Position numbers and translations under genes: made by a program. This document shows positions 2,622 through 59,632 of a stretch of DNA of 64,000 nucleotides, piece after piece. The notes below the pieces were generated by a model. The model did no database searches and was not told the origin of the DNA. It worked only from the letters and a program-made list of their open reading frames with translations. The DNA is taken from the NCBI GenBank assembly GCA_024614665.1, contig GCA_024614665.1_4861.1, one strand, 5' to 3'. The stretch's first letter is position 1, and every line of letters starts with the position of its first letter. This stretch comes from a phage.

Positions 2622-2672
2622 GTTAAAACTCCTTAAGATAATGGTCGATTAGATAAGAGTTAATGGTTAACT

Positions 2673-2698
2673 CTCACCTAAGTAATATATATCTGAAA
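2673..2698 (-). promoter_or_regulatory. class-1 promoter-like motif (mRNA sense TTTCAGATATATATTACTTAGGTGAG)
   Basis: One of at least 5 near-identical copies, each about 50-70 nt upstream of a gene start and followed by the conserved leader. Confidence 0.55.
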
Positions 2699-2733
2699 AT
2701 AATTGTAATCGGACTAGACAAAAAAAGAAGAAA

Positions 2734-2757
2734 CCCTACTCCCGAAGGAGTAGGGTG
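2734..2757 (-). terminator. UUCG-loop hairpin terminator
   Basis: CCCTACTCC-CGAA-GGAGTAGGG followed on the minus strand by a U-run; downstream of 2797..3237. Confidence 0.6.
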
Positions 2758-4107: not shown

Positions 4108-4428
4108 TTAAAATCCATTGCGACCTCCCTGTGCGATGTATAACGCACATTTCGCATTGAGTGCTTCGATATTAGCGATAAGTATCATCACCCCGCCGAG
4201 TGTGCGCGGTACGCGAACTGCTTCGTATTCACGCCCTTGCGTCCGGACACAATATTCATCGCCCAGGAACGCGATTTCGTAATACTCAGCACGTAACGGT
4301 ACAAATGACTGTAGCAACATATCTGCGGTTTGATAGTCGTCAGTCAGTTTCCCGCCCTCGAGTAAATATTTCTGAATCTCGTGAATAGTCAGTCCCCGTA
4401 ATGAAATAGACACCGGCTTCTCCTTCAT
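4108..4428 (-). CDS. hypothetical protein, about 100-106 aa
   Basis: ORF; conserved leader element AATCGACCAT and AAGGAG lie at the start region (ATG 4428 or in-frame GTG 4410), inside the 3' end of the upstream gene. Confidence 0.5.
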   Translation of the reverse strand: MKEKPVSISLRGLTIHEIQKYLLEGGKLTDDYQTADMLLQSFVPLRAEYYEIAFLGDEYCVRTQGREYEAVRVPRTLGGVMILIANIEALNAKCALYIAQGGRNGF

Positions 4429-4765
4429 GGTCGATTAATAACAGTTCAGGTGGTACGTCGTAGTCGATGGGTGCGGACTCCTCCATCGCGCCATACAATC
4501 GCTGATAGAACTCTCTGGAAGTTTCCAGGTGCCCTCTTGACACATGTTCGACATGCGGTACATTAGGATGATAAAACTCGCCATAAGTTATCGCTAACTC
4601 AACAAACCATAGACATAGTTCTCTTGGCCCGTATCGGTTATAAAACTTTATCACCCCAACATCAAACATCTTGTTGTAATGCGGTAAATCACGATAACGA
4701 AGTTTTAGTGTACTTACACCGATGCGTTGAAGCTCGATAGAGATAGCTACGTCTATGGTTACCAT
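4340..4765 (-). CDS. hypothetical protein, 141 aa
   Basis: ORF track; 3' end overlaps start of 4108..4428 in another frame. Confidence 0.55.
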   Translation of the reverse strand: MVTIDVAISIELQRIGVSTLKLRYRDLPHYNKMFDVGVIKFYNRYGPRELCLWFVELAITYGEFYHPNVPHVEHVSRGHLETSREFYQRLYGAMEESAPIDYDVPPELLLIDHEGEAGVYFITGTDYSRDSEIFTRGRETD

Positions 4766-6709: not shown

Positions 6710-6782
6710 TTTAATTGCTCCTTAATACATGACATAAGCTCTGATTGAAACGTAAATTTCAGAGGTTCACTGAGATAACATC

Positions 6783-6800
6783 TATCTGAAATAAAATAAA
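6783..6800 (-). promoter_or_regulatory. class-2 promoter-like motif (mRNA sense TTTCAGATAGATGTTATC)
   Basis: Related to class 1 (AGATA.AT.TTA.C) but without the conserved leader; upstream of 6377..6709. Confidence 0.45.
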
Positions 6801-15509: not shown

Positions 15510-15528
15510 AATAACATCTATCTGAAAA
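15510..15528 (-). promoter_or_regulatory. class-2 promoter-like motif
   Basis: mRNA sense TTTTCAGATAGATGTTATT; upstream of small basic protein gene. Confidence 0.45.
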
Positions 15529-21399: not shown

Positions 21400-21765
21400 C
21401 TACATCACTGCAGAAGGTTTACGTGCCATGACTTTAAGTCCCGTATCTCGTACCCGGATAGGACAATTATTCATGTAATCAATGCAGGATTCTATTTTGA
21501 AGCTGTGTCGACATTTACCGTTGATGGAACGGTAAACGATTTCGTAATTCAGGCGCAGTGTGTCGGCAACACGCATCAGAGTTTCGATAGTTACGGCTTT
21601 CTCACGTTCATTTTTAATCGCAGAGATTTGTGACGGTGAGCAGCCTACTAATAACGCGATGTCTTTCTGCGTAACGTCCTTCGCAGTAACACGCGTAATA
21701 ATGTAAGAAAGACGAACCAAAAACGTTTTCTTTGCCAACACAACGGCTTGATGTTTAAAACGCAT
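21400..21765 (-). CDS. helix-turn-helix DNA-binding protein (XRE-like), 121 aa
   Basis: QKDIALLVGCSPSQISAIKN resembles an HTH; first gene after class-1 promoter and conserved leader. Confidence 0.55.
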   Translation of the reverse strand: MRFKHQAVVLAKKTFLVRLSYIITRVTAKDVTQKDIALLVGCSPSQISAIKNEREKAVTIETLMRVADTLRLNYEIVYRSINGKCRHSFKIESCIDYMNNCPIRVRDTGLKVMARKPSAVM

Positions 21766-21814
21766 TAGAATACTCCTTTAGATTAATAGTCGATTAGAGA
21801 GTTTAACGACAACT

Positions 21815-21840
21815 CTCACTAAGGTAATATATATCTGAAA
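21815..21840 (-). promoter_or_regulatory. class-1 promoter-like motif
   Basis: Plus-strand CTCACTAAGGTAATATATATCTGAAA; upstream of HTH gene. Confidence 0.55.
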
Positions 21841-21896
21841 TTTAGTGGACTGGAAGCAAAAAGCATAGGACTGTTCTGATCTGTAAAAAAGACAAT

Positions 21897-21922
21897 ACCC
21901 TCTTACCCGAAGGTAAGAGGGG
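21897..21922 (-). terminator. UUCG-loop hairpin terminator (identical copy at 49098..49123)
   Basis: CCCTCTTACC-CGAA-GGTAAGAGGG downstream of tmk. Confidence 0.6.
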
Positions 21923-21927
21923 TACAA

Positions 21928-22551
21928 CTAACCTGCCAGAATACGTTCAACGATACGCGCGGCTTGTAACGCTATATCGTCGTCAGCCGTAACGCGCATC
22001 AGCGGGAACTTATCGCCGCCATCTGTGGTGATGTGGAAAGCAAAACGGTAGTGGTCGCGTAACGCGTCCCAATCAGTCTGTGAGCGCAGATACTTCGCTG
22101 TCAGTACCTCATCATCCCAGTTCTTGCCCTGGGCTTCTGCGCGCTTCTTAAAGCGTTCTGTGGCGGTTTCGTAGGATACATCGGTTGCCACGTAAAGTTT
22201 CGGTGTGTTAATGTGGTCTAATACCCGTGAACGGAAAACTTCCCCTTTACCATCGACGCCTTGGTAGACAATAGTCGATTGACAAAAACGGTCAAAAATA
22301 ACGACATCGTGCTCTGGCACAACGAAATCCATCGTGTATTGGAAATCCAGACACATCGCTTTAGCAATGCGTTCGTTAGAAGCGTGCTGGATAACCAGAG
22401 AACGTGCACTAATACCGGCTTCAGTGGTATTCGTCGGGTGATTGACGATGATGACATTAACGCCAGCGGAGCGCAACATCGCTTGAATCATTTTCGCGAG
22501 TGTTGATTTGCCAGAAAAGTCCGGACCATCCAGCGCCACTGAGTTTAACAT
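21928..22551 (-). CDS. tmk: thymidylate kinase (dTMP kinase)
   Basis: P-loop LDGPDFSGKST near N-terminus and DRFCQSTIVYQG matching the Tmk DRxxxSTxAYQG motif; ATG at 22549-22551. Confidence 0.75.
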   Translation of the reverse strand: MLNSVALDGPDFSGKSTLAKMIQAMLRSAGVNVIIVNHPTNTTEAGISARSLVIQHASNERIAKAMCLDFQYTMDFVVPEHDVVIFDRFCQSTIVYQGVDGKGEVFRSRVLDHINTPKLYVATDVSYETATERFKKRAEAQGKNWDDEVLTAKYLRSQTDWDALRDHYRFAFHITTDGGDKFPLMRVTADDDIALQAARIVERILAG

Positions 22552-22627
22552 TTTATTCTTCCCCAAAAGTTTAATTAATTGTAGTGGTGTCACAATATAG
22601 CGACCATACGTAAAGAAAAAAATAATG

Positions 22628-22648
22628 GGCACTCCGAAGAGCGCCCAA
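22628..22648 (-). terminator. UUCG-loop hairpin
   Basis: GGGCACTC-CGAA-GAGCGCCC (imperfect stem) downstream of 22654..23268. Confidence 0.4.
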
Positions 22649-22653
22649 TAAAC

Positions 22654-23268
22654 TCACTTCACAAGCAGTATCTGCTTGCCAGCGATCCGTACCTCATCCC
22701 AGTTTAGATGTCTTGCAGCTGCACTAACTAAATCAACGCAGTTTGCCTCAGCAATCCAATCTTGACAAACACTCCGAATGAATTCAGGCTGCAGTAGAGC
22801 CATTGGCGTTGACTCTGAATAATCCTCTGGGGAGGGAATACGTGCAAAGTCCACCATCTGCTCCAGTTTACGAAGTTGTGTATGGAAGCGATAATAAAGA
22901 GTTTCTGTATGGCTTTCGCCGTTCTCTTCAACGAGAGTAATATTGATTGCGATACCAGTACGAGTATAGTCGTTTTTATCAACTTTGTACGTGGATGCGC
23001 TTAAGTTATAACCAAAGAACTTTATACCTACCTCGGCGTCAAACTCATCGTTGAGAATTTCGGTATACATATTGCTCAATTCGTGGGTACACGGACGAAC
23101 GTCGTAATAGTCGTCGCCTTCGAAAGGTGCGTATTGTGTATCTGGTAGAAGATTATTAAAAATCCAGTTTGGTAAACGTTGACGAAACTCTTCAGCAATC
23201 TTACGACGTTCGTCTGAATCGGTAGTGGTTGAGAGTGCAATGGCCGCGTCTACAATATTAGTAATCAT
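22654..23268 (-). CDS. hypothetical protein, 204 aa
   Basis: ORF downstream of class-1 promoter and conserved leader. Confidence 0.6.
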   Translation of the reverse strand: MITNIVDAAIALSTTTDSDERRKIAEEFRQRLPNWIFNNLLPDTQYAPFEGDDYYDVRPCTHELSNMYTEILNDEFDAEVGIKFFGYNLSASTYKVDKNDYTRTGIAINITLVEENGESHTETLYYRFHTQLRKLEQMVDFARIPSPEDYSESTPMALLQPEFIRSVCQDWIAEANCVDLVSAAARHLNWDEVRIAGKQILLVK

Positions 23269-23309
23269 AGTGAGTTCCTTAATGGTCGATTAAAAGAATA
23301 GGTCGTAGT

Positions 23310-23336
23310 CTCACTAAAGTAATATATATCTGAAAA
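23310..23336 (-). promoter_or_regulatory. class-1 promoter-like motif
   Basis: Plus-strand TCTCACTAAAGTAATATATATCTGAAA; directly after a terminator hairpin. Confidence 0.55.
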
Positions 23337-23348
23337 ATAATAGAGTCG

Positions 23349-23370
23349 ACCCACTCCCGAAGGAGTGGGT
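23349..23370 (-). terminator. UUCG-loop hairpin terminator
   Basis: ACCCACTCC-CGAA-GGAGTGGGT followed directly by a class-1 promoter. Confidence 0.6.
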
Positions 23371-24911: not shown

Positions 24912-25379
24912 TTAAAGCTCCTTTACCATATCCTGGTATTCAGTTCGAAAACCGAAACGTTCATAAAACGCAATAGCACGGTCGTTATTACCGAGCACGT
25001 TAAGCTGCATCCATGCGCAGCCTTTTGATTTGCCGTAATTTTCTACGGCTTCAATTAACTCATGACCGACGCCTTGAGAGCGAACTGATTCATCTACAAA
25101 GAAGTTATATACCCAGAGGAAACGTTGTCCCTTTTTGGTGTAGCCAAAGGTGATGAAACCAACAGCCACACCACGGTCATCAACGGCGCAAGCGCACAGC
25201 GTACCTTCACCCCAAACCTCCTCCAGTTTTGAGATTTGATTAAACCCTTCACGACCGTTTAAGTCGGCAAGTTTTATTTTCTGATCGTCGTATAACTTGT
25301 TGTGTAGTCCTAACAAGTCCGCGTAGTATTTCTTTCCATACGGAGAGTTGGGCTTGGTGACAAAAACAATTTTCATCAT
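24912..25379 (-). CDS. GNAT family N-acetyltransferase, 155 aa
   Basis: VDESVRSQGVGHELIEAV (motif A) and AIAFYERFGF (motif B). Confidence 0.75.
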   Translation of the reverse strand: MMKIVFVTKPNSPYGKKYYADLLGLHNKLYDDQKIKLADLNGREGFNQISKLEEVWGEGTLCACAVDDRGVAVGFITFGYTKKGQRFLWVYNFFVDESVRSQGVGHELIEAVENYGKSKGCAWMQLNVLGNNDRAIAFYERFGFRTEYQDMVKEL

Positions 25380-40330: not shown

Positions 40331-42109
40331 TTAGCGGCCGATTTTAGCAATGTCTTCTTCGGTCGGTCTGATGTACGGGTCCAGTTTAGGATTCCGCATC
40401 ATTACCAAACTTGGGTTGGTCTTCATGTACGGGTTGAGGATGTTTGCCTTAAACGGTGCCGACTTAGGAATATAGTAGACGTTACCGCATTCCAGATGCG
40501 ACGCGGATGCGTGCTTAGTACGGTCGTTCAAGTTAACGGTCTTGCCTCCTTTCTTCGAACGCTTAGCATCGGTTTCGGTTTGACCGATGGCGTGCGTAGA
40601 CACTGCCAATACCATTGATTCTGTAGAGGCATTGAAGAAACTGATACCGCCGTTGCTCGTAATGGTGCGCATCACCAGATTGAGCACGATCTGTTTGTTC
40701 AGTGCGTCTCGAATAGACTTCGCCGCTGTCTCTGGAGTCCGATGTTCCAACTGCCCCAGCTTCCAACGTATTTTCGAGATCGTTGTGGTAAAGCCACGTT
40801 GACCCAACAGTAGGTAATCGGTTACCGTGAGACGTTTTCCGTACATAGACGGAATATCATCTTGCTTGGTAAGTCGAGTGCGTACCATCAGCTGCGTGGT
40901 ATACCAGAGGAAATCAAACATATCCAAATCATCAGGGATGGACGGATCGTTTGCCATCAGCTCACCACGGAAGGTGCTGTTGACATAGCGTTCACATTCC
41001 TGGAAGTGGCTGTCCATACTGCGACTCAGTTCGATATCCGAAGGCTTCAGTCCGCGAATACTGCGGCCCAACACTTCACGCCAAGACGCTGCAGAGTTGA
41101 GGTTTGCAATATCTTCGTCCATTGCCATTTCATTAATCTGTGTAAACAGCCCCGGTAGTGTTGGTGCACGACCGTTCTTACTGTTCTGTTTACCTGCGTA
41201 GTAGTGCGCTGCTTTGAAGAACGCAGCAGTCGCTACCAGCAACAGATGTTCGTTTTGATCCCAACGCCCTGCATCGGTGTTAGGCATATCTTCACGTTTA
41301 ACCAACAATACGTACTGGATGGTCTTCGCGAGTTGTGGCTCACCAGATTGAATCACCACATACTTCGTTAAGTCCACATCACGCACTTTAATCGCTGGCC
41401 AAATCGCCACATCAACGCCCGCATAACGCTTCACGGCTTGTTTAAAGCCATAACGCCCAAAGAGCCAATACATCAGTGGCTTCTCATCTGTGTCGTGTCC
41501 AATCTGTCCAGTGGAGACAAACAGATTCGATGTACCCGGCAAGAACAGCTGCTCAGGGCGACCATTCACCAGAATCTTCGTTGGTTTCTTACAGAACTTG
41601 ATAGACACCTTGCGAGTGAAGTCAAAGTTAATAAAGATACCGCCGTGCTCACGACATATACCAGGTTGATGGATTACAGGTGCTACGTGGTACGTTGTAC
41701 CATAGTAGTTCATTAAGCCGCCACGACGAATAAACGGCAGGCTCATTGGTCGTTGCACCGGGCGAGGATCACCTGGAACTCGGAACGAGGCCATTACCAT
41801 ATACGTGTCAGTGGATGAGATGTTAATAATTGACCGGCCACGATTATTTCGTGAATTGTTATCCGACTTCGATAACTTAAAGATAAAAGCTTCAAACGGC
41901 GACATTTGGCGACAACCTAATACCGTTAACCCTTCTGGTAATTTCGGGTTATCGATTTCATCATACGTCAACTCACGACGTAGAATGGTTGCCACACGAT
42001 CATGTATCCCATCTTTAGCTTGTGTGTACCCAACTCCTTCTGCAATTGCACGATTAAAAGGCACTATTTCGCCTGCCTCTTTAATCTTCCTAATCGCATC
42101 TTTAAACAC
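40331..42109 (-). CDS. large hypothetical protein, 592 aa
   Basis: Long ORF track. Confidence 0.6.
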   Translation of the reverse strand: MFKDAIRKIKEAGEIVPFNRAIAEGVGYTQAKDGIHDRVATILRRELTYDEIDNPKLPEGLTVLGCRQMSPFEAFIFKLSKSDNNSRNNRGRSIINISSTDTYMVMASFRVPGDPRPVQRPMSLPFIRRGGLMNYYGTTYHVAPVIHQPGICREHGGIFINFDFTRKVSIKFCKKPTKILVNGRPEQLFLPGTSNLFVSTGQIGHDTDEKPLMYWLFGRYGFKQAVKRYAGVDVAIWPAIKVRDVDLTKYVVIQSGEPQLAKTIQYVLLVKREDMPNTDAGRWDQNEHLLLVATAAFFKAAHYYAGKQNSKNGRAPTLPGLFTQINEMAMDEDIANLNSAASWREVLGRSIRGLKPSDIELSRSMDSHFQECERYVNSTFRGELMANDPSIPDDLDMFDFLWYTTQLMVRTRLTKQDDIPSMYGKRLTVTDYLLLGQRGFTTTISKIRWKLGQLEHRTPETAAKSIRDALNKQIVLNLVMRTITSNGGISFFNASTESMVLAVSTHAIGQTETDAKRSKKGGKTVNLNDRTKHASASHLECGNVYYIPKSAPFKANILNPYMKTNPSLVMMRNPKLDPYIRPTEEDIAKIGR

Positions 42110-42120
42110 ACCGGCCTCCC

Positions 42121-43125
42121 TCAGAGAATCATCCCAACGAGTGCTACCCCTGCAGCCAAATACGCGGGAATGGATTTCAAGAACTCCGAGCTATCTTTTC
42201 GCTGATAAGCTCGGGACTCGTATTGGTCTTTACGAACATCGGAACGCAACTTAAGCTCATTCGTCTGGATTGCGTTAAGGGTGTTAATCCTCTCCTTCTC
42301 CAGCGCCAGATTATTAAGTTGCGTACGATAATCGAGGTCTTGCCGATTCTTTTTCTCATCGAGATCTTGCAACTTGGCCTGATACGTGGCTTCCAGCTTC
42401 GCACGAACATCTCGCAACTCTGGAATGTTATCGAGCCACCGATAACGCCTCGCTTCTTCTTCAGATGCAAACGCCCGGAACGGGGACATCGGGTCATCGA
42501 AAGCGTACATTATCATTTTACCCCCTTCGACACACTCCGCACCACCGATTACCATGTAAATACCCTCGTCGTAATACTTCGATCGAATCGGTTCGACTTC
42601 CAACATCGTTGTATAGAACCTCAGCCACTTTAAAGGTGCTGGGTCTTCGTACTTCTGCACAACTACCACGCCCAAGGCAAATTCTTTACGATCCCCTCCT
42701 GGCTTACCAATAACCTCAGAATCGAGTTTTACTGGTTGAGTAGAGAAAGCCATTCCTAGCTTTTTCAACACCACCAAGTCGCCTCGCATTAACGCACCGA
42801 TATCATCAACTACATACATCAGCGTTGTTTCGCCGTTCGTAGTTAATTCCTTACATATCTGCGCATACTGCTTTGGCGAATGTGCGTCGCGCAAACCAGA
42901 TAGGTTAGCACCGTTCGCAAACACCGTATAGGTCACGTAAATCACAATCCCAAATTCCGCCGCTGTGGTGGACGACGGGGCTAAAACAAAATGCCCGCCA
43001 CTGAGTTCAGTGACGTAAATGGGAAACCCGGTATTATTTTCGTACGTGATAGTCTTCGACACGGCACCACGGTGCATGGGCCGCTGGGTTAGCGTTGGCT
43101 GAACGTCTAAATCATAACGGTTCAT
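42121..43125 (-). CDS. protein with coiled-coil region and C-terminal TM anchor, about 335 aa
   Basis: ATG at 43123-43125; C-terminal IPAYLAAGVALVGMIL; downstream of class-2 promoter motif. Confidence 0.55.
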   Translation of the reverse strand: MNRYDLDVQPTLTQRPMHRGAVSKTITYENNTGFPIYVTELSGGHFVLAPSSTTAAEFGIVIYVTYTVFANGANLSGLRDAHSPKQYAQICKELTTNGETTLMYVVDDIGALMRGDLVVLKKLGMAFSTQPVKLDSEVIGKPGGDRKEFALGVVVVQKYEDPAPLKWLRFYTTMLEVEPIRSKYYDEGIYMVIGGAECVEGGKMIMYAFDDPMSPFRAFASEEEARRYRWLDNIPELRDVRAKLEATYQAKLQDLDEKKNRQDLDYRTQLNNLALEKERINTLNAIQTNELKLRSDVRKDQYESRAYQRKDSSEFLKSIPAYLAAGVALVGMIL

Positions 43126-43166
43126 TGAGCATCCCAGTAATAATACCAAAAGAATTATTCACGTAG

Positions 43167-43183
43167 ATAATATCTATCTCAGA
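43167..43183 (-). promoter_or_regulatory. class-2 promoter-like motif
   Basis: mRNA sense CTGAGATAGATATTATC; upstream of 42121..43125. Confidence 0.4.
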
Positions 43184-43230: not shown

Positions 43231-43929
43231 TTAGGGTATTAGGCGTTGGGCTATTTCGCGGAGTTGGTCGCGGGTTAAATCAGCCAACTTCTGGTCGCCG
43301 AAGCCCAACTTCAGACCCAGCTCGTACCCAGCTTGCGGATACGTGTTCGTGTTTGCTACTGAGAGGAGTGCATCGGCTATCTTTACCATCGTTAACTCGA
43401 GAGACGCATACGGGGCGGGGATCGGCTGATTCACGATTTGGTAATTATAACGCACTGCGGCGTTATCGTAGTCAAACTCCATCCTTCTGCCGAGAACGTT
43501 AAACGACTCCGCAGAATAACTACCAAATGGGTGATTGGCTTTTTCCCACAAATCTTTCCGTTCAGTAAACCCAGTCGCGAAGTTCTGACGTATGGTGTCG
43601 AATATTTGCGTTGCCTGGCTAGGGTGTATATTTTTCAGCTCATTGTAGTCGTAGTCGGCGATGGAATATAGAGTGAACACAACACCGTTTATATTTAACT
43701 GCGGATAATCCATCCGCAGACTGTCATCACCTTGTAAATGAAGTTCCCACATCCTTACCCACTGCAATATCGCGCTTACCGCATCGTGACTGAGATAAAA
43801 ATTAGTAGGTTCTTCAGGATTTTCACGGAAGGGAACAGAGCATTCCGATACAAAAAAGCCGGCTGCCATAAATCCTCTGCCGTCGAACATAGGCGCAACT
43901 AATCTTGATTTTTCTAAATTGATTACCAT
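43231..43929 (-). CDS. hypothetical protein, 232 aa
   Basis: ORF with TTAAGGAG SD; downstream of class-2 promoter motif. Confidence 0.6.
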   Translation of the reverse strand: MVINLEKSRLVAPMFDGRGFMAAGFFVSECSVPFRENPEEPTNFYLSHDAVSAILQWVRMWELHLQGDDSLRMDYPQLNINGVVFTLYSIADYDYNELKNIHPSQATQIFDTIRQNFATGFTERKDLWEKANHPFGSYSAESFNVLGRRMEFDYDNAAVRYNYQIVNQPIPAPYASLELTMVKIADALLSVANTNTYPQAGYELGLKLGFGDQKLADLTRDQLREIAQRLIP

Positions 43930-43970: not shown

Positions 43971-43989
43971 GATAATATCTATCTATAAA
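43971..43989 (-). promoter_or_regulatory. class-2 promoter-like motif
   Basis: mRNA sense TTTATAGATAGATATTATC; upstream of 43231..43929. Confidence 0.4.
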
Positions 43990-44064: not shown

Positions 44065-46365
44065 TTAGCCGCCAGCGCCTTCACCGCCAGTACCTGGCTG
44101 GGTAGCACCGCCGCCAACATCACCAGCATTACCACCGTCAGTACCGCCGGTGCCGTTGGAAGTAGTAGTGACGTTGAACGCCAGTTTCTCTTCCACGAAC
44201 TTGGTGATACCTTTAATCCAGATCAGACCAGTGATCGGGCAGTGGCAGATGTGCGCGTTACGAGGCTGTACTGCCAGCTCTTTGCTGGTAGCGCCGTTAC
44301 GCTGGATGTTGATGTTGGTTACCATGATCGGAGACCAGAAGTGGTTACCCCAGTTCAGAACACAGTAAGAACCATCATCAGCGGTTGGAACTTTCAGAAC
44401 CCACTGCAGGCGGCGAGTCCAGCTGCCGTCAGCTTCGTTCTTCACACGCCAGCGGTCATCGTTGGTGGTGATAACTTCGTACTCGTAGCGATCGCCCAGC
44501 AGACGCTGGTCGCCCTGAACCAGCAGCAGCATTGCAGCAGTCGGTTCGTCAGTTGCGATAACAACTTTCGGCAGTGCGTTCGGGTCCGCAGTCAGCAGGC
44601 GCAGAGCCGGCATGAAGCGAGAGTCCTGGATAGCACGAGTTACCTGGTCACCGATACGCTGTACCAGACCCTGACGGGCGTTGATGAGCGCATCTTTGGT
44701 ATCCAGAGACTGGATCACTTTGTCCACTTCGTAGTCGCTTTCGCTGTACCACGGAGCAACCCAGTGACGGCCCAGGCCGCGGATAGCAGGTTTGTCCCAC
44801 GGAGTGATCATGGACGCAGCTGCGTTCTTAACCGCTTCGGTGTAAGACAGAGTCTGAGTGATAGCCAGCATTTCGTTACGGATGTTAACCGCAGAAACGA
44901 GGTCGTCCAGACGTTCGGTGTCGTCGTATTCAACGCCAACCGGAGATTTGGTCATGATCGGAGAACCGTACTGCAGTTTGTAGTTCTCTTGTTCCCAAAT
45001 CGGGTCGAGCAGAAGGCCCTGGGTTCTCCGGTTCTCGTTGGTACGAGTACCGTCGAAGCGCCAGCCCAGCAGCTCCAGTTTCAGGTTGTCGATGATGACT
45101 TTGCCGGTGCCGCTTTCGATATCAACAGCAGTACCAGTTGCATCGTACAGACCTTCGATTTCCAGAGACGGTGCAGTCACGTCAACACGACCAGAGAACT
45201 GACCGTTGGTGAACAGAGACATGCTGATGTTCATGGAATAACGAATGGTGTAATCGTTCTGTGCCAGAGCGGCCAGTGCCGGGATTTCAGCACCTTTCCA
45301 GTCCAGAGACTTGGCGTTCAGGGAGAACACAGTGCGACGGAACTGCAGGACCAGCTCACGACCATCACCTTCAGGAGGACGCTGGAAGGTAGCGAACTGC
45401 ATGTCGCGTACGTTCAGTTTGATCAGCGCACCATCTTTCGCTTCTTCGCTCGGCTTACGCACAGACAGCAGCAGGCTACCCAGCGCTGCACCCGGTGCGA
45501 TTTCGTCGGTTTCATCGTAACCTTCCTGCACGATACCCGGATGGGCAGACAGCTGGAACAGGTTCAGACGACGCTCAGAGAAGCTCAGGTAGTTGGTCGG
45601 ATACGCCGGCACACGACCCAGCTGAACGTTTTCGTTTTCGATGATGTCTTCGGATACGAAGAACTTCGCGTTCTCACCGGTTTCCATCACGTAAGGTACG
45701 ATACGGATAGCATCGTCCTGCAGGACTTTGTGGTTAGACAGCGCGTTATGCAGCGGCTGACGGTTGTCTTCAACCACGTCTTTGGTCAGCAGGGCGTTCA
45801 GGATACCACGAGTTACAGTAGTAACTTTGGTACGAACGGTGATGCCGACGTCGTTGGTGTCCACAGTGATGGTCGGGAACAGGGTTTCTGCAAACTTGGA
45901 TTGAGTTTCCAGAGCACGCACGTTCAGCGTCCAGGTCAGACCCAGGTTTTTGTCCAGGTCTTTGTTGGTGTAGTATTCGGTTGCGACCAGCGGAGTTTTA
46001 CCGTAGTCAGCAGCCAGGGATGCTGCACCAGAAATAGCGATCGGCATATAGCTGGCGTATTCCGGCTTCGCGCTCTCAGCAGCAACACGGGTCATGAAGT
46101 CATCTTCGTGACCGGCAGCAGCCAGAATCATCGCAGAAGCAACCTGAGCAGCGTGGCTCATGGTTTTGCCAGGGTTTACAGCTTCGTAGTGCTGCTGAGC
46201 AGTGTCACGCAGGTTGGTGAAGCCGGCAGCATTTTTACGTACAGATTCGCCAACGGCTACGGTTTGCCATACGTCATTAGCGGAAGAGCCTGCCTTGGCA
46301 GCAGCGACCAGAGCATTGCCCTGCTGAACCAGCTGGTCCAGACTAGCGATACGGGTATCTTTCAT
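44065..46365 (-). CDS. highly expressed large structural-like protein (candidate major capsid or tail sheath), 766 aa, Gly-rich C-terminus
   Basis: Strong codon bias (few stops on the opposite strand, giving a 715-aa shadow ORF); flanked by promoter motif and hairpin terminator. Confidence 0.65.
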   Translation of the reverse strand: MKDTRIASLDQLVQQGNALVAAAKAGSSANDVWQTVAVGESVRKNAAGFTNLRDTAQQHYEAVNPGKTMSHAAQVASAMILAAAGHEDDFMTRVAAESAKPEYASYMPIAISGAASLAADYGKTPLVATEYYTNKDLDKNLGLTWTLNVRALETQSKFAETLFPTITVDTNDVGITVRTKVTTVTRGILNALLTKDVVEDNRQPLHNALSNHKVLQDDAIRIVPYVMETGENAKFFVSEDIIENENVQLGRVPAYPTNYLSFSERRLNLFQLSAHPGIVQEGYDETDEIAPGAALGSLLLSVRKPSEEAKDGALIKLNVRDMQFATFQRPPEGDGRELVLQFRRTVFSLNAKSLDWKGAEIPALAALAQNDYTIRYSMNISMSLFTNGQFSGRVDVTAPSLEIEGLYDATGTAVDIESGTGKVIIDNLKLELLGWRFDGTRTNENRRTQGLLLDPIWEQENYKLQYGSPIMTKSPVGVEYDDTERLDDLVSAVNIRNEMLAITQTLSYTEAVKNAAASMITPWDKPAIRGLGRHWVAPWYSESDYEVDKVIQSLDTKDALINARQGLVQRIGDQVTRAIQDSRFMPALRLLTADPNALPKVVIATDEPTAAMLLLVQGDQRLLGDRYEYEVITTNDDRWRVKNEADGSWTRRLQWVLKVPTADDGSYCVLNWGNHFWSPIMVTNINIQRNGATSKELAVQPRNAHICHCPITGLIWIKGITKFVEEKLAFNVTTTSNGTGGTDGGNAGDVGGGATQPGTGGEGAGG

Positions 46366-50659: not shown

Positions 50660-50841
50660 TAGTAAATCTCCTGCTGCATTGGAAATACATTACCTGTCGG
50701 TGAGACAAGTAAAACTTGCGCGGTAACGTGAACGATTTCTTCTTCGTCCTGACGACGAACACTGTTAGTGAGATTATCCCACTCACGTTTAACACGCGGG
50801 TGAGATAAGAACTCGGCAAACTGCGCATCAGAAAAGTCCAT
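50659..50841 (-). CDS. hypothetical small protein, 60 aa
   Basis: ATG overlaps stop of the upstream membrane micro-protein (TAATG). Confidence 0.45.
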   Translation of the reverse strand: MDFSDAQFAEFLSHPRVKREWDNLTNSVRRQDEEEIVHVTAQVLLVSPTGNVFPMQQEIY

Positions 50842-50984
50842 TAGCCGCGACCTGTACACATGGCAACAGAGTTACCGTTATCGATGCACTTATTGTAATC
50901 TTGAGTTACAGTGATAGACAGTACCGCGAAAGCAACAACAGCAACGATGGCAAAGATGGCACGTTTATGGTTACGAGTTAACAT
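50841..50984 (-). CDS. small membrane protein, 47 aa (MLTRNHKRAIFAIVAVVAFAVLSITVTQDYNKCIDNGNSVAMCTGRG)
   Basis: First gene after class-1 promoter and conserved leader (AAAGGAGTATTGCC before ATG); one TM helix; not in ORF track. Confidence 0.5.
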   Translation of the reverse strand: MLTRNHKRAIFAIVAVVAFAVLSITVTQDYNKCIDNGNSVAMCTGRG

Positions 50985-51034
50985 GGCAATACTCCTTTAG
51001 ATTAATAGTCGATTGAGTTGATAGATTGTCTTCT

Positions 51035-51060
51035 ATCACCTAGGTAATATATATCTGAAA
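51035..51060 (-). promoter_or_regulatory. class-1 promoter-like motif
   Basis: Plus-strand ATCACCTAGGTAATATATATCTGAAA; upstream of small membrane gene. Confidence 0.55.
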
Positions 51061-51078
51061 TTATTTTTATTCAGAGTA

Positions 51079-51196
51079 CACCCTCTATAACGCTCTCAAA
51101 CGCGTTTTGAGAGCTTTTATCACTATAGAGGGTCGTTCTACCGTTAGAGTGGCTTTAGAAGGTTGTGAGTGCGTTTAGAGGGCTAAAATAAAGAGA
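51079..51196. promoter_or_regulatory. structured non-coding element: nested 9-bp inverted repeats followed by four TTAGAG(G)G-like direct repeats
   Basis: CCCTCTATA (51082-51090) pairs with TATAGAGGG (51124-51132); inner GCTCTCAAA (51092-51100) pairs with TTTGAGAGC (51106-51114); TAGAG repeats at about 51126, 51145, 51156, 51176. Confidence 0.45.
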
Positions 51197-58130: not shown

Positions 58131-58676
58131 TCATTGAACCATACGCTGCGCGTCGTAAGACGGTGCGAGGTTCACAACACGACCATGTAGAGTTTGCTCT
58201 GCTTCGTCTAACAGGTCATCGCGTACGAGCGTCTGGCGAATGTAAAGCGTTGCACGTATCCCCTCAGCGCTGTAAGGCGCGGTGACCATTTTGGTCTGGT
58301 AACCATCAATCGTCACCGGAACACGCTCACCGTTACGACGAACAAAATGCTCCAACTTACCGTAATCGTGACTACAGACTTTAGACATGTCGGACAATCC
58401 CGCATCGATTAAGTATTTCCAAAGACCGATGATGCTCTCCGAGCAATGTTTGTTAAGTTCACCTTCGACGACAAACTCGTACCCACCGTACGTTAGAATG
58501 TGCGTGCCTGCTGCACGACGATCACATTCTAAAATGAATACGCCCAGACCAATCATAACTGGACGCGGGATTGTCATGACACTGGTACTAAATTGCAGCG
58601 TAGTAACCTCATCCCAAAGGGGCGATGATTTATCGTTACTTACGCTAATAATATCTTTAAGATTGACACGTTTCAT
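58131..58676 (-). CDS. hypothetical protein, 181 aa
   Basis: Preceded by conserved leader TAATCGACCATTAATCTTAAGGAGTATTTATA and AAATATTAC promoter variant. Confidence 0.6.
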   Translation of the reverse strand: MKRVNLKDIISVSNDKSSPLWDEVTTLQFSTSVMTIPRPVMIGLGVFILECDRRAAGTHILTYGGYEFVVEGELNKHCSESIIGLWKYLIDAGLSDMSKVCSHDYGKLEHFVRRNGERVPVTIDGYQTKMVTAPYSAEGIRATLYIRQTLVRDDLLDEAEQTLHGRVVNLAPSYDAQRMVQ

Positions 58677-58726
58677 TATAAATACTCCTTAAGATTAATG
58701 GTCGATTACATACGGTTTCAGGCTAA

Positions 58727-58739
58727 CGTAATATTTACG
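58727..58739 (-). promoter_or_regulatory. class-1 variant (AAATATTAC) overlapping the stop codon of the upstream gene
   Basis: Followed by the full conserved leader before gene 58131..58676. Confidence 0.35.
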
Positions 58740-59496
58740 CTGCTGGTTCTTCAGCGGTTTTCACTTCAACTGGTTTCATCAGCGAGTTCGCACAGTCGAA
58801 GATAGCATCCAGGAAACCACGGAACGGCTTCATGGCTTCACGCTGGGCGTTCTGACGTTCTTCTTCAATTGCTTCTTCTTGCGCCTGAATTTCTTCAGCA
58901 GTCAGCTCCGGGTGTTCCGTCATGCTTTCTGCCAGGGTCATCACTTTCGGCTGCGCATTCCGAATCGGAATACGGCGGATGACCTTGGTGATATTCCCGA
59001 GCTTCATGCCACCCAGCGCGGTTTCGAACAGCGTACCGAAATCTTGCAGTGGGTCTTCGCTGATTTCCAGTACCGCCGGAGTCGCAACCAGACCAAAGGC
59101 AATGACCAATTCAACAGCAGTGTCAGTGACGTGCACAGCGAACGGGGTGTCTTCCATCTGCAGGTAATTGTTACCATTATAGGTCACCGGAATGAATTTG
59201 ATTTCTTCCCCTTTCTTCAGGCGCAGTGTGTCGACTGCGGCTTTGTACTGAACTTCGTACAGTTCCGGTTTAACACCGTCAACGTTATCCAGTGTAAAGA
59301 GCAGGTCGCCAACCGCCATACGGCGCGGCAGTTTGCGTTTGTTGATTTCGCGCAGCCAGACTTGTAAGCCGGTGAATTGAATTGGGGACAGTATAATTTT
59401 AAAGCCGTTGGTTGCTTGCAGGATAGCACCGTCGTCTTCGCTACGTTCGATAGAGCCATTAGCCAGAGTAAGCAGATTGATAGTTTTCATTTTCAT
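58735..59496 (-). CDS. hypothetical protein, 253 aa
   Basis: Downstream of class-1 promoter motif and leader. Confidence 0.6.
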   Translation of the reverse strand: MKMKTINLLTLANGSIERSEDDGAILQATNGFKIILSPIQFTGLQVWLREINKRKLPRRMAVGDLLFTLDNVDGVKPELYEVQYKAAVDTLRLKKGEEIKFIPVTYNGNNYLQMEDTPFAVHVTDTAVELVIAFGLVATPAVLEISEDPLQDFGTLFETALGGMKLGNITKVIRRIPIRNAQPKVMTLAESMTEHPELTAEEIQAQEEAIEEERQNAQREAMKPFRGFLDAIFDCANSLMKPVEVKTAEEPAA

Positions 59497-59537
59497 ATTC
59501 CTTAAGTGATAGTCGGTTAAAAGATTACCAATGCAAT

Positions 59538-59563
59538 CTCACCTAGGTAATATATATCTGAAA
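59538..59563 (-). promoter_or_regulatory. class-1 promoter-like motif
   Basis: Plus-strand CTCACCTAGGTAATATATATCTGAAA; upstream of 58735..59496. Confidence 0.55.
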
Positions 59564-59598
59564 TCTTTTCTAATCTGAGACAAAAAAAGAAAGGGTAA

Positions 59599-59620
59599 AT
59601 CCCCCACCGAAGTGGGGGAT
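59599..59620 (-). terminator. UUCG-loop hairpin terminator
   Basis: ATCCCCCAC-CGAA-GTGGGGGAT then U-rich tract; downstream of paralog B, followed by class-1 promoter. Confidence 0.6.
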
Positions 59621-59632
59621 TCGCCAGTCTAA

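Follow-up and report, generated by a model that had tools for sequence, protein, structure and literature searches.

The early promoters of phiKZ and 201phi2-1 are AT-rich, lie ca. 10 bp 5' of the transcription start, and carry conserved -10, -20, and -30 regions (PMC7598289, PMC8244752, PMC11512511). SPN3US is the genetic model of enterobacterial jumbo phages; phages of this type package their own polymerase, and SPN3US gp34-gp35 constitute a non-virion polymerase (PMC5105663). No SPN3US time-course or transcriptome data or transcript map was found in the searchable literature. Here we analyzed a phage DNA of 64,000 nucleotides (this whole stretch is called the window), which showed 99.5% identity with SEGD1 and 98.7% identity with SPN3US and thus represents an SPN3US/SEGD1-type Salmonella jumbo phage. 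Our reading, to which we assign a probability of roughly 0.75, is that the repeats of this window described below (class 1 repeats) are the SPN3US-type early promoter, a counterpart of the phiKZ early promoter used by the virion polymerase, with the anatomy and leader roles proposed here.

The initial annotation had reported five class 1 copies, and the 26-mer TTTCAGATATATATTACTTAGGTGAG matched at exactly these places with 0–3 mismatches (2673-2698, 21815-21840, 23310-23335, 51035-51060, and 59538-59563, all on the minus strand), while shuffled sequences gave no match. The 27-mer consensus given there had no match even at three mismatches because it contains one base too many (TTACCTTAGG); the true sequence is TTTCAGATATATATTACYTAGGTGAG. 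A supposed variant at 58727-58739 is not a promoter copy, having only ATATTAC in common with the family and not being picked by the weight matrix. A position-weight scan of the window yielded nine family sites scoring 37–54 bits, all in gene sense, and the tenth-best score was -1.5 against a shuffle maximum of 9. These nine sites consist of the five copies above (class A) and four variants (class B). The cassettes, class B sites, and downstream leader motifs of the window described below all lie on the minus strand.

The class A promoter of cassette 1 (2673..2703; 54.4 bits) reads TTTCAG-ATATATATTAC-TTAGGTGAG, with the core at 2682-2692 and the putative +1 G at 2675, and precedes the gene 2175-2621 (ATG 2619-2621). 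The promoter of cassette 2 (21815..21845, putative +1 G 21817, 46.8 bits) lies before a gene for a Cro/C1-type HTH protein (21400-21765, ATG 21763-21765), that of cassette 3 (23310..23340, putative +1 G 23312, 43.5 bits) before the gene 22654-23268 (ATG 23266-23268), and that of cassette 4 (51035..51065, putative +1 G 51037, 51.8 bits) before a 47-aa ORF (50841-50984, ATG 50982-50984). Cassette 5 has its promoter at 59538..59568 (putative +1 G 59540, 50.7 bits) and a likely start codon ATG at 59488-59490. The class B members are located at 6775..6785 (ATAGATGTTAT core, 41.9 bits), 15511..15521 (37.0 bits), 43167..43177 (46.4 bits), and 43972..43982 (49.0 bits). The third of these heads an operon of ORF 42121-43149 followed by ORF 40331-42109, and the fourth lies before ORF 43231-43929.

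All five class A copies have a stem-loop 20–60 nt upstream, as do three of the four class B sites. In cassettes 1 (2733..2756, an intrinsic-terminator-like stem-loop of 10 bp with a T-run), 2 (21898..21921), and 5 (59598..59621, AATCCCCCACTTCGGTGGGGGATT with a T-run), it is terminator-like, and a canonical terminator-like hairpin with a T-run occurs at three of the five class A copies. Cassette 3 has a GC stem-loop, CCCACTCCTTCGGGAGTGGG (23350..23369), and cassette 4 has GCTCTCAAA-acgcg-TTTGAGAGC (51092..51114). These stem-loops therefore suggest that the cassettes insulate small early genes as separate units.

The likeness to phiKZ-type early promoters, which the initial annotation had noted, was confirmed by reading the same TATATTAC core directly in phiKZ DNA. 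In the first 50 kb of phiKZ (NC_004629), TATATTAC occurs seven times, always on the plus strand, intergenic, and upstream of genes, and one of these sites lies before PHIKZ054, a gene with a published early primary start site (PMC8244752). All seven read aaaaaTTTgAGATtTATATTAC-N5-TG, and the corresponding form here is aaaaataaTTTCAGATATATATTAC-N5-TG. The AT-rich core of ca. 10 nt, ATATATATTAC, includes the phiKZ TATATTAC, and TG occupies positions 6–7 after the core in 7/7 phiKZ sites, in the SPN3US class A sites, and in most class B sites. Upstream of the core, TTTCAG and an A-rich block are conserved among the SPN3US sites, as judged by information content, and in about 60 cassettes from relatives; the phiKZ equivalents of the upstream block are TTTaAaCAG and TTTgAGAT. 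Since TATATTAC-N5-TG matches the phiKZ motif, these results support the reading of the copy family as early promoters for the virion polymerase. A literature full-text search for TATATTAC returned unrelated papers only.

We infer a layout in which the core ATATATATTAC spans roughly -17 to -7, preceded by TTTCAG (ca. -23 to -18) and, farther upstream, by an A-rich stretch (ca. -33 to -25). Judging from the spacing and the invariance of the base, the transcription start is most likely the G seven bases after TTAC, which is present in 19/19 SPN3US seed sites and 7/7 phiKZ sites. The invariance of GTGA among the relatives is partly by construction because the pattern used to collect them had GTGA fixed, and it is independent only for the 19 seed and 7 phiKZ sites. 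The stem predicted for the 5' hairpin described below reaches 3–5 nt upstream of this G in roughly half of the cassettes; because the stem crosses the putative +1, the start could be earlier, or the pairing could partly matter in DNA.

In the SPN3US genome, 23 family sites were found at a threshold of at least 27 bits, all on the plus strand with none on the minus strand. All 23 are in gene sense, only one is non-intergenic, and nearly all are immediately 5' of a Shine-Dalgarno sequence and start codon. One lies directly 5' of the gp34-gp35 genes. The window operon headed by the class B site at 43167..43177 contains ORF 40331-42109, whose product is homologous to gp123, a non-virion RNA polymerase subunit of phiKZ (PHIKZ123; E = 3e-20 to PDB 7OGP_E). 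The remaining downstream genes are small, have no known function, or encode HTH proteins, and no annotated virion gene was seen directly behind the family sites of the window and SPN3US. By orientation and gene context, the 23-site family behaves like an early promoter set. The class 1 promoters are very probably read by the virion-carried RNA polymerase, a view of timing and dependence that draws on homology and context.

To judge the distribution of the family, the search pattern mattered. In IMG/VR, a 14-mer was unspecific, and AGATATATATTACNNNNGTGA was swamped by an unrelated coding string (..FEDIYYVGEV..) from small marine-type contigs. When AGATATATATTACNNNNGTGA was extended by TC upstream and Y downstream, 64 family loci were obtained, nearly all of them in contigs of 100–246 kb (most 220–246 kb) or in fragments of such phages. 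Most of the 61 phage records, which included Salmonella, Erwinia, Cronobacter, Escherichia, and Proteus phages, carried 2–6 family copies each.

The initial annotation had described the leader behind the promoter as invariant. The leader in fact varies, and its most constrained part is a promoter-adjacent hairpin that had been overlooked. This hairpin starts at the putative +1 G and was predicted in cassettes 1 (GAGAGTTAA-cca-TTAACTCTT, 2655..2675, centroid structure), 2 (GAGAGTT-N7-AACTCTC, 21797..21817), 4 (GATAGA-N6-TCTATC, 51020..51037), and 5 (GAGATTGC-attg-GTAATCTT, 59521..59540). Cassette 4 carries a G-to-T change in the 5' arm together with a compensating change in the 3' arm, and a set of 47 distinct cassettes (ca. 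20 jumbo-phage genomes and large contigs) likewise showed compensatory changes. When the RNA was started at the invariant G, 41 of 65 cassettes formed a 5'-terminal hairpin of -4 kcal/mol or lower, compared with 5.1 for shuffled sequences; shifting the start by at least 6 nt downstream or by 12 nt upstream reduced the count to 1–5. Chimeras joining the 5' and 3' halves of different copies lost 2.9 kcal/mol (p = 7e-12). In a covariance-model alignment of the 47 distinct sequences, which was fitted to the structure, 90.6% of the paired cells could pair versus 74% after shuffling, a value reached by 0/500 shuffles, and two-sided changes occurred in 5/8 pairs; slid controls gave 45–67%. RNAalifold on a gapless MAFFT alignment of the cassettes found no structure because loop lengths vary among the copies. 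The loops are 3–11 nt long and not conserved in sequence. The conserved initially transcribed sequence runs into the lower stem and thereby fixes part of it. A search of the whole window against Rfam 15 gave no match at the gathering score. A stable 5' hairpin is absent from the copy at 23310 and present in only one of the seven phiKZ promoters; the hairpin is therefore dispensable for promoter function.

A second conserved block (block 2) behind the promoter was also confirmed, with two corrections: the gap between the blocks is 17–21 nt, not 20–40 nt, and the block ends 5–9 nt 5' of the start codon instead of at it. TAATCGACYATTAATCTWAAGGAGT matched at 21772-21796, 50991-51015, and 58684-58708, and degenerate forms lie behind the other copies. 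Cassette 1 has the core AATCGACCAT at 2641-2650 and the Shine-Dalgarno sequence AAGGAG at 2629-2634 (together 2629..2650), cassette 2 has AATCGACTAT at 21786-21795 and a Shine-Dalgarno sequence at 21773-21778 (21773..21795), and cassette 4 has the core at 51005-51014 and a Shine-Dalgarno sequence at 50992-50997 (50992..51014). In cassette 3, AATCGACCAT (23282-23291) abuts the Shine-Dalgarno sequence AAGGA (23276..23291), and cassette 5 carries a degenerate AACCGACTAT with AAGGA (59499..59518). Block 2 also precedes two further genes. A promoter-less block 2 with a Shine-Dalgarno sequence, TAATCGACCATTAATCTTAAGGAGT (58684..58708), precedes the gene 58131-58676, the second in the cassette 5 operon. 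The other, AATCGACCAT-G-AAGGAG-AAGCCG-GTG (4411..4436), overlaps the end of the upstream ORF and leads into a RefSeq-type GTG start. It corresponds to the leader-core copy that the initial annotation had placed at 4429..4440 inside a coding region; the copy exists, but its correct position is 4427-4436, before the Shine-Dalgarno sequence and GTG of the next gene.

The core AATCGACYAT occurs seven times exactly in the window, always on the minus strand, against 0.27 expected. One of these copies (22271-22280) is intragenic without ribosome-binding context and may be due to chance. On the sense strand of SPN3US, 11 of 21 TCGACYAT sites sit 13–31 nt 5' of a start codon, and those 11 are in operons headed by a family promoter. 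In Erwinia phages, TAATCGACYAT abuts the Shine-Dalgarno sequence whether the promoter is present or absent. Block 2 hexamers were among the most enriched words other than T-runs at -36 to -12 of predicted starts. Block 2 is a motif tied to the ribosome-binding site and not to the promoter, and it also occurs at promoter-less internal genes. Several other roles were considered for it. Participation in a stable leader structure masking the Shine-Dalgarno sequence was rejected, as block 2 was predicted to be single-stranded and the z-scores of whole leaders were near 0. Pairing with 16S rRNA as an enhancer was rejected because duplexes with E. coli rrsH were no better than those of shuffled motifs, a fraction of 0.4–0.9 of which paired at least as well. 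Finally, a general late promoter was rejected, since none of the seven antisense-strand copies precedes a gene start, and no block 2 was seen before the structural genes checked. The similarity of block 2 within a genome could partly come from gene conversion rather than selection.

Taken as a mechanism, these features would act in sequence. The injected polymerase would fire the class 1 promoters at once, and the RNA would open with a 5'-terminal stem-loop of ca. 7 bp followed by an unstructured AU-rich leader, with ca. 53 nt from +1 to the start codon. Directly before a strong Shine-Dalgarno sequence, such leaders would carry (U)AAUCGACYAU in SPN3US-like and Erwinia phages. The terminal hairpin may shield early mRNAs against 5'-end-dependent decay (RppH/RNase E), and the single-stranded block 2 may be a recognition site beside the ribosome-binding site in a subset of early-operon genes; candidate users are a translational regulator, an RNA-binding protein, or a nuclease.

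Other explanations of the repeats differ in the polymerase that they assume. Strong host sigma-70 early promoters as in T4, with UP-element-like flanks and a discriminator, would account for the A-rich DNA upstream of the core and for the resemblance of TATATT/TATTAC, suitably spaced from the invariant G, to a -10 hexamer; T4-type cassettes of a promoter plus stem-loop have a similar architecture (PMC2839356). One copy (23321-23349, TCGACT-17-TATATT) matches the consensus at 9/12 positions. However, it was the only one of three copies to reach 9/12 in a sigma-70 scan, in which the copies at 2673 and 21815 went undetected and the totals were not above those of shuffles. The -35 hexamer is not conserved, whereas conservation covers positions irrelevant to sigma-70 (TTTCAGATA and YTAGGTGA). 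The motif equals the early motif of phiKZ, a phage reported to need no host polymerase for infection (PMC7598289, PMC5105663), and phages of the present type bring a polymerase of their own (PMC5105663), which makes a sigma-70 origin quite improbable. A division of labor within the family is another alternative, in which class A would form a temporal class apart from class B, either immediate-early or middle through a non-virion or modified polymerase, and only class B would be the true early promoter of polymerase genes. The two classes are separated by two coupled base changes (TATATATTAC vs TAGATATTAT), differ in leader length and hairpin presence, and persist side by side in several genera. 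Because the non-virion polymerase genes lie behind class B and not class A sites, the classes might differ in timing. Against distinct polymerases, the phiKZ early core TATATTAC occurs in exact form in class A and not in class B; both classes have TTTCAGATA, the spacing, and the +1 G in common, a hybrid site exists (SPN3US 4429), and the middle and late promoters of phiKZ look quite different (PMC7598289). One polymerase for both classes is the simplest reading, and a separate temporal class A appears unlikely.

Two further alternatives concern the function of the repeated DNA itself. The inverted repeat might act in transcription, as a promoter-proximal pause site or attenuator giving short RNAs or as an N4-like DNA hairpin. 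Premature-termination short RNAs in 5' UTRs are documented for phiKZ and 201phi2-1 (PMC10914365, PMC11512511). Three or four T follow the stem in many copies, the stem extension upstream of the putative +1 noted above would fit such a role, and the SPN3US class A cassette at 165689 has a true terminator in its leader. On the other hand, the stems are GC-poor (median 2 GC pairs, -6.5 kcal/mol), and at least 5 T within the 8 nt after the stem were found in only 5/56 cases, so that a canonical terminator or attenuator was rejected. N4 promoter hairpins are located upstream of the start site and have fixed 3-nt loops; here, the loops are of variable length and the hairpin is situated 3' of the core, at or beyond the putative +1, which does not fit an N4-type hairpin promoter. 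The family also works without a hairpin in class B and in phiKZ, and we regard a role of the repeat in transcription as rather unlikely. The repeats might instead be mainly recombination substrates or relics of mobile cassettes with little regulatory meaning. The window and SPN3US differ by six indels or replacements, three of which are situated within ca. 100 nt of, or between, family sites, although indels and promoters both favor intergenic DNA. Compared with SPN3US, a gene cassette has been replaced at cassette 3, with the left junction exactly in the promoter core and the other at a terminator; T4-type promoter-plus-stem-loop cassettes offer a parallel (PMC2839356, PMC4122927). Nevertheless, all 23 SPN3US sites point in the direction of the genes, nearly all of them just before translation signals, conservation of the core extends from Salmonella and Erwinia phages as far as phiKZ, and terminal inverted repeats and target duplications are absent. 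Any role in recombination would follow from promoter function instead of competing with it, and recombination as the main explanation is hardly credible.

The promoter is an element of the expected kind, and the general picture of jumbo-phage transcription is unchanged; for the leader features (hairpin and block 2), no description was found in the searchable literature. The nine window sites and 23 genome sites provide a testable early-promoter map for SPN3US-type phages. The core of the virion-polymerase promoter is conserved from Pseudomonas to enterobacterial jumbo phages down to the probable start nucleotide, and this conservation narrows what the uncharacterized virion polymerase must recognize. 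The covarying hairpin and the motif at the ribosome-binding site are cheap handles for work on how early genes are controlled post-transcriptionally and for the construction of expression cassettes in these phages. As a tentative and rather doubtful extension, the class A cassette might be a portable module of the SPN3US/Erwinia branch of nucleus-forming jumbo phages, whose hairpin and AAUCGACYAU would be bound by phage RNA-binding factors such as ChmC, stabilizing, routing, or silencing a subset of early messages, and which would also drive T4-like gene shuffling.

Compared with known systems, the family resembles the early promoters of phiKZ and 201phi2-1 in the identical 8-nt core TATATTAC, the downstream TG, the upstream TTT-AGAT block, and the A-rich -30 region. 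As in those phages, about 20–30 copies per genome are co-oriented with operons of small genes without known function and non-virion polymerase genes (PMC8244752, PMC11512511, PMC7598289). Unlike phiKZ, the SPN3US clade has the longer invariant stretch TTTCAGATATATATTACYTAGGTGAG and two subclasses, and its class A promoters are coupled to a covarying 5' hairpin, which one of the seven phiKZ sites has. The cassettes are also similar to the PeSLs of T4-type phages, composites of a short terminator stem-loop and an early promoter repeated between small accessory genes (PMC2839356), and at least one cassette swap between close relatives, with junctions in promoter and terminator, may be a further likeness. 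The promoters of T4-type PeSLs are of the sigma-70 type and read by the host polymerase, whereas the class 1 promoters are not sigma-70-like.

For the leader, 5'-terminal stabilizer stem-loops are known in bacterial and phage mRNAs, e.g., in the E. coli ompA 5' UTR. The class A leader resembles this type in that single-stranded RNA follows a short hairpin at the 5' end, with the structure kept and the sequence not; unlike in mapped 5' stabilizers, the position of the class A hairpin at the 5' end depends on the putative start. In T4, RegB cleaves within GGAG and RegA binds around the AUG, i.e., a phage factor acts at the ribosome-binding region of some early mRNAs, and the role of block 2 could be similar, although block 2 is 5–9 nt upstream of the Shine-Dalgarno sequence, unlike the RegA and RegB targets. 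The early 5' UTRs of AR9 have a predicted common motif of unknown function (PMC5312081), which can be likened to block 2 by description only. The chimallivirus protein ChmC shows binding peaks near start codons, including those of internal genes of polycistronic mRNAs, in PhiPA3 (PMC11077065). No sequence motif was found for ChmC (PMC11077065), and the location of its binding matches that of block 2.

In its first 12 kb, the window matches Enterobacteria phage SEGD1 at 99.5% identity and Salmonella phage SPN3US (genus Seoulvirus) at 98.7%; both are phiKZ-related jumbo phages of 240 kb. Nearly all window genes lie on the - strand, and SPN3US 51.9-117.1 kb is collinear with the whole window in reverse orientation with the exception of six indels or replacements. 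The initial annotation had described a repeated promoter and leader in this stretch, and this observation was confirmed with small corrections. The 27-mer quoted for the promoter contained one base too many and had no match in the window even at three mismatches, and the corrected 26-mer TTTCAGATATATATTACTTAGGTGAG (block 1) matched exactly the five places reported (2673-2698, 21815-21840, 23310-23335, 51035-51060, and 59538-59563), all on the - strand, with 0 expected. The proposed variant at 58727-58739 had only ATATTAC in common with these copies and fell outside the family in a weight-matrix scan. Using a matrix built from the SPN3US family, we found nine window sites of 37-54 bits; the next best scored -1.5, and the shuffle maximum was 9. 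Five of the nine are the copies listed (class A, core ATATATATTAC), and four form a sister class (class B, core ATAGAT(A/G)TTAT) at 6775-6785, 15511-15521, 43167-43177, and 43972-43982, also on the - strand. Both classes share TTTCAGATA and an invariant G, the putative transcript start (+1), and their joint consensus is an A-rich stretch, TTTCAGATA(G/T)AT(A/G)TTA(T/C)YT, NN, and GTGA. Class B leaders are short and usually have no 5' hairpin.

The resemblance to phiKZ early promoters proposed in the initial annotation held in direct comparison. In the first 50 kb of the phiKZ genome, from which we read the motif, TATATTAC occurs seven times, always on the + strand, intergenic, and ahead of a gene; one occurrence precedes PHIKZ054, whose primary start site has been reported with the early motif (PMC8244752). 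The phiKZ sites are flanked as aaaaaTTTgAGATtTATATTAC-N5-TG and the window class A sites as aaaaataaTTTCAGATATATATTAC-N5-TG. The Pseudomonas and the Salmonella phage thus have in common the core, its upstream block, and the TG at positions 6-7 counted from the end of the core. The published early element is AT-rich and lies ca. 10 bp before the start site, with more conservation around -20 and -30 (PMC7598289, PMC11512511, PMC8244752). Taking the invariant G as +1 would put TATTAC at -12 to -7, TTTCAG at about -20, and the A-rich block at about -30.

A whole-genome scan of SPN3US gave 23 family sites of at least 27 bits, all on the + strand (the sense strand of most genes), and none at this threshold on the - strand. 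Twenty-two are intergenic and located a few tens of bases 5' of a Shine-Dalgarno sequence and start codon. A site of 37.8 bits at SPN3US 25228-25238 is within a coding region, 270 nt 5' of the next gene, and may be an internal promoter. The genes behind the family sites encode small proteins of unknown function, a Cro/C1-type HTH protein, and the non-virion RNA polymerase, class B being the subclass that precedes the polymerase genes. One family site directly precedes SPN3US gp34-gp35 (RefSeq locus-tag number = 266 minus the literature gene number), and gp35 is the non-virion beta' C-terminal subunit (PMC5105663). ORF 40331-42109, part of the operon led by the window site at 43167, encodes a homologue of phiKZ gp123 (E = 3e-20 to 7OGP chain E), which is a subunit within the solved non-virion polymerase structure. 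No family site was found directly before annotated virion-component genes of SPN3US, nor in front of its virion-polymerase genes gp42, gp218, gp240, gp241, and gp244 (SPN3US annotation; PMC5105663).

Since the genes of the second polymerase need to be transcribed before that polymerase exists, this arrangement speaks for the injected virion polymerase as the enzyme involved, the host polymerase being a second candidate in principle. A consistent sigma-70 promoter was rejected: one of the three copies scanned reaches 9/12 matches, and a conserved -35 hexamer is absent. Sequence comparison and gene context together support the class A sites as putative phiKZ-type early promoters. Reviews state that such elements can be identified by bioinformatics in any jumbo phage with polymerases of its own (PMC7598289), and the promoter itself is thus of an already known kind. 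Tandem family sites ca. 90 nt apart (SPN3US 15616 and 15709) were also present upstream of an operon ending in an 'RNA polymerase beta subunit' gene, presumably encoding a non-virion subunit.

BLAST placed the 121-nt cassette (promoter plus leader) at 2-6 positions in most of 61 phage records, namely Salmonella SPN3US-likes, Cronobacter CR5, Escherichia and Proteus isolates, and the Erwinia phages phiEaH2, Stratton, Asesino, Caitlin, ChrisDB, Huxley, Machina, and Parshik. In IMG/VR, a scan with a specific pattern returned 66 matches at 64 loci, nearly all on contigs measuring 100-246 kb (220-246 kb in most cases) or on fragments of such phages. These matches yielded 62-65 distinct class A cassettes, and class B was present alongside class A in the same genomes, including those of Erwinia phages. 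More than 100 small, probably marine, viral contigs of IMG/VR also contain AGATATATATTACGTNGGTGA, there as a conserved coding sequence (..FEDIYYVGEV..); these matches are unrelated to the promoter and mislead pattern searches.

Directly 3' of GGTGAG, we found an inverted repeat that the initial annotation had missed, whose sequence varies among copies while pairing is kept (for example, GAGAGTTAA/TTAACTCTT, GATAGA/TCTATC, GAGATTGC/GTAATCTT, AGCGTTA/TAACGCT, and GAATGAC/GTTATTC). When RNA was started at the invariant G, 56 of 65 cassettes formed a hairpin with no more than three unpaired 5' nucleotides (medians: 7 bp, 2 GC pairs, -6.5 kcal/mol, end near +20); the window copy at 23310 has none. 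Such hairpins at -4 kcal/mol or better occurred in 41/65 cassettes compared with 5.1 in shuffles. Starts shifted by at least 6 nt downstream or by 12 nt upstream gave 1-5 hairpins at the same cut-off, and a start 6 nt further upstream still gave 39 because the stems often extend upstream. Exchanging 3' halves between copies cost 2.9 kcal/mol on average (p = 7e-12), and, with the 5' arm as anchor, three to five Watson-Crick or wobble pair types occurred at each of positions 8-13 downstream of TTAC. A covariance model built from seven real sequences retrieved 55 cassettes. In the resulting alignment (47 distinct sequences), 90.6% of cells pair compared with 74% in shuffles (0/500 reach this value), both sides change in 5/8 pairs, and slid partners pair at 45-67%; the fit of this alignment to the model gives weight to the tests made without alignment.

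The hairpin is a feature of class A, being present at 5/15 class B sites and 1/7 phiKZ sites. The latter, at phiKZ 45568-45620 before the nuclear-shell gene PHIKZ054 (-8.8 kcal/mol, z = -2.7), is the sole stable 5'-terminal hairpin among the seven TATATTAC promoters. A canonical terminator was rejected, the stems being too GC-poor and the T-runs too short. Going by position and covariation only, the simplest interpretation is an mRNA-protecting 5' stem-loop, which would shield early messages from 5'-end-dependent decay. At SPN3US 165683-165790, a strong intrinsic terminator (GGCTACCTTCGGGTAGCC with a T-run) stands ca. 30 nt beyond a class A promoter and hairpin and ahead of the gene. This arrangement predicts a short RNA of ca. 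55 nt or an attenuator; such an RNA would be comparable to the short 5'-UTR RNAs reported from phiKZ and 201phi2-1.

The second conserved block of the leader (block 2) exists as claimed: AATCGACYAT occurs seven times exactly in the window, all on the - strand, with 0.27 expected. Its position required revision, from 20-40 nt after block 1 to 17-21 nt, and from reaching the start codon to ending 5-9 nt 5' of it. The copy of AATCGACTAT at 22271-22280 (- strand), inside ORF 21928-22632 (the SPN3US thymidylate kinase gene), is followed by neither a Shine-Dalgarno sequence nor a start codon and is probably a chance copy. For two ORFs on the - strand, another start codon is likelier and agrees with RefSeq SPN3US: GTG at 4413 for ORF 4108-4428 (AAGGAG 6 nt upstream), and ATG at 59490 for ORF 58735-59496 by Shine-Dalgarno spacing.

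SPN3US carries 28 TCGACYAT, including 21 in the sense orientation. Of these 21, eleven are positioned 13-31 nt (mostly 19-21) ahead of a start codon and directly precede the Shine-Dalgarno sequence, compared with ca. 0.7 expected from the share of the genome that close to a start. All lie within operons headed by a family promoter, several at internal genes having the leader without a promoter; the window has such promoter-less sites before internal genes at 58684-58708 and 4411-4436 (both - strand). In the Erwinia phages, TAATCGACYAT runs straight into the Shine-Dalgarno sequence (…GACYATCRAGGA…) at 11 ribosome-binding sites linked to a promoter and at ca. 10 that are promoter-less, the remainder of the leaders having diverged. 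Block 2 words were the top specific signal after T-runs in an unbiased hexamer count over -36 to -12 of ca. 300 predicted starts. Folding predicts block 2 to be unpaired; it shows no unusual complementarity to 16S rRNA and matches no Rfam family. A role as part of the promoter was rejected, since it goes with ribosome-binding sites, also at promoter-less internal genes. Block 2 is thus a predicted single-stranded motif that accompanies the ribosome-binding sites of some early-operon genes, and our best guess is that a phage regulator, RNA-binding protein, or nuclease binds there. Early 5' UTRs of AR9 share a motif of unknown function (PMC5312081), and ChmC of nucleus-forming phages has binding peaks near start codons, internal genes included, with no motif identified (PMC11077065); both make a binding site plausible, short of proof.

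We found no description of the covarying start-site hairpin or the cross-genus ribosome-binding-site motif in the literature searched, and they add modest interest beyond the promoter. A further stem-loop is located 20-60 nt upstream of each of the five class A copies, and three (2733-2756, 21898-21921, and 59598-59621, all - strand) are terminator-like with a T-run. The unit thus comprises a terminator, promoter, 5' hairpin, block 2 with Shine-Dalgarno sequence, and gene. Window 23305-22639 (leader plus a 204-aa ORF, phrog_21313) stands in for SPN3US 92567-93433, a class B leader with a different 252-aa gene, and the junctions of this swap fall at the promoter core and the terminator 22626-22647. 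Two more indels adjoin or fall between family sites. This total of 3/6 is no more than suggestive, since intergenic DNA is favoured by indels and promoters alike. Window 43239-43886 (ca. 650 bp), carrying most of ORF 43231-43929 (232 aa), lies between two class B promoters and is absent from SPN3US, which retains only the first ca. 45 nt of the ORF. In its layout, the unit is similar to a group of T4-type phage elements, the promoter-plus-stem-loop cassettes (PeSLs), through which modules are shuffled (PMC2839356, PMC4122927).
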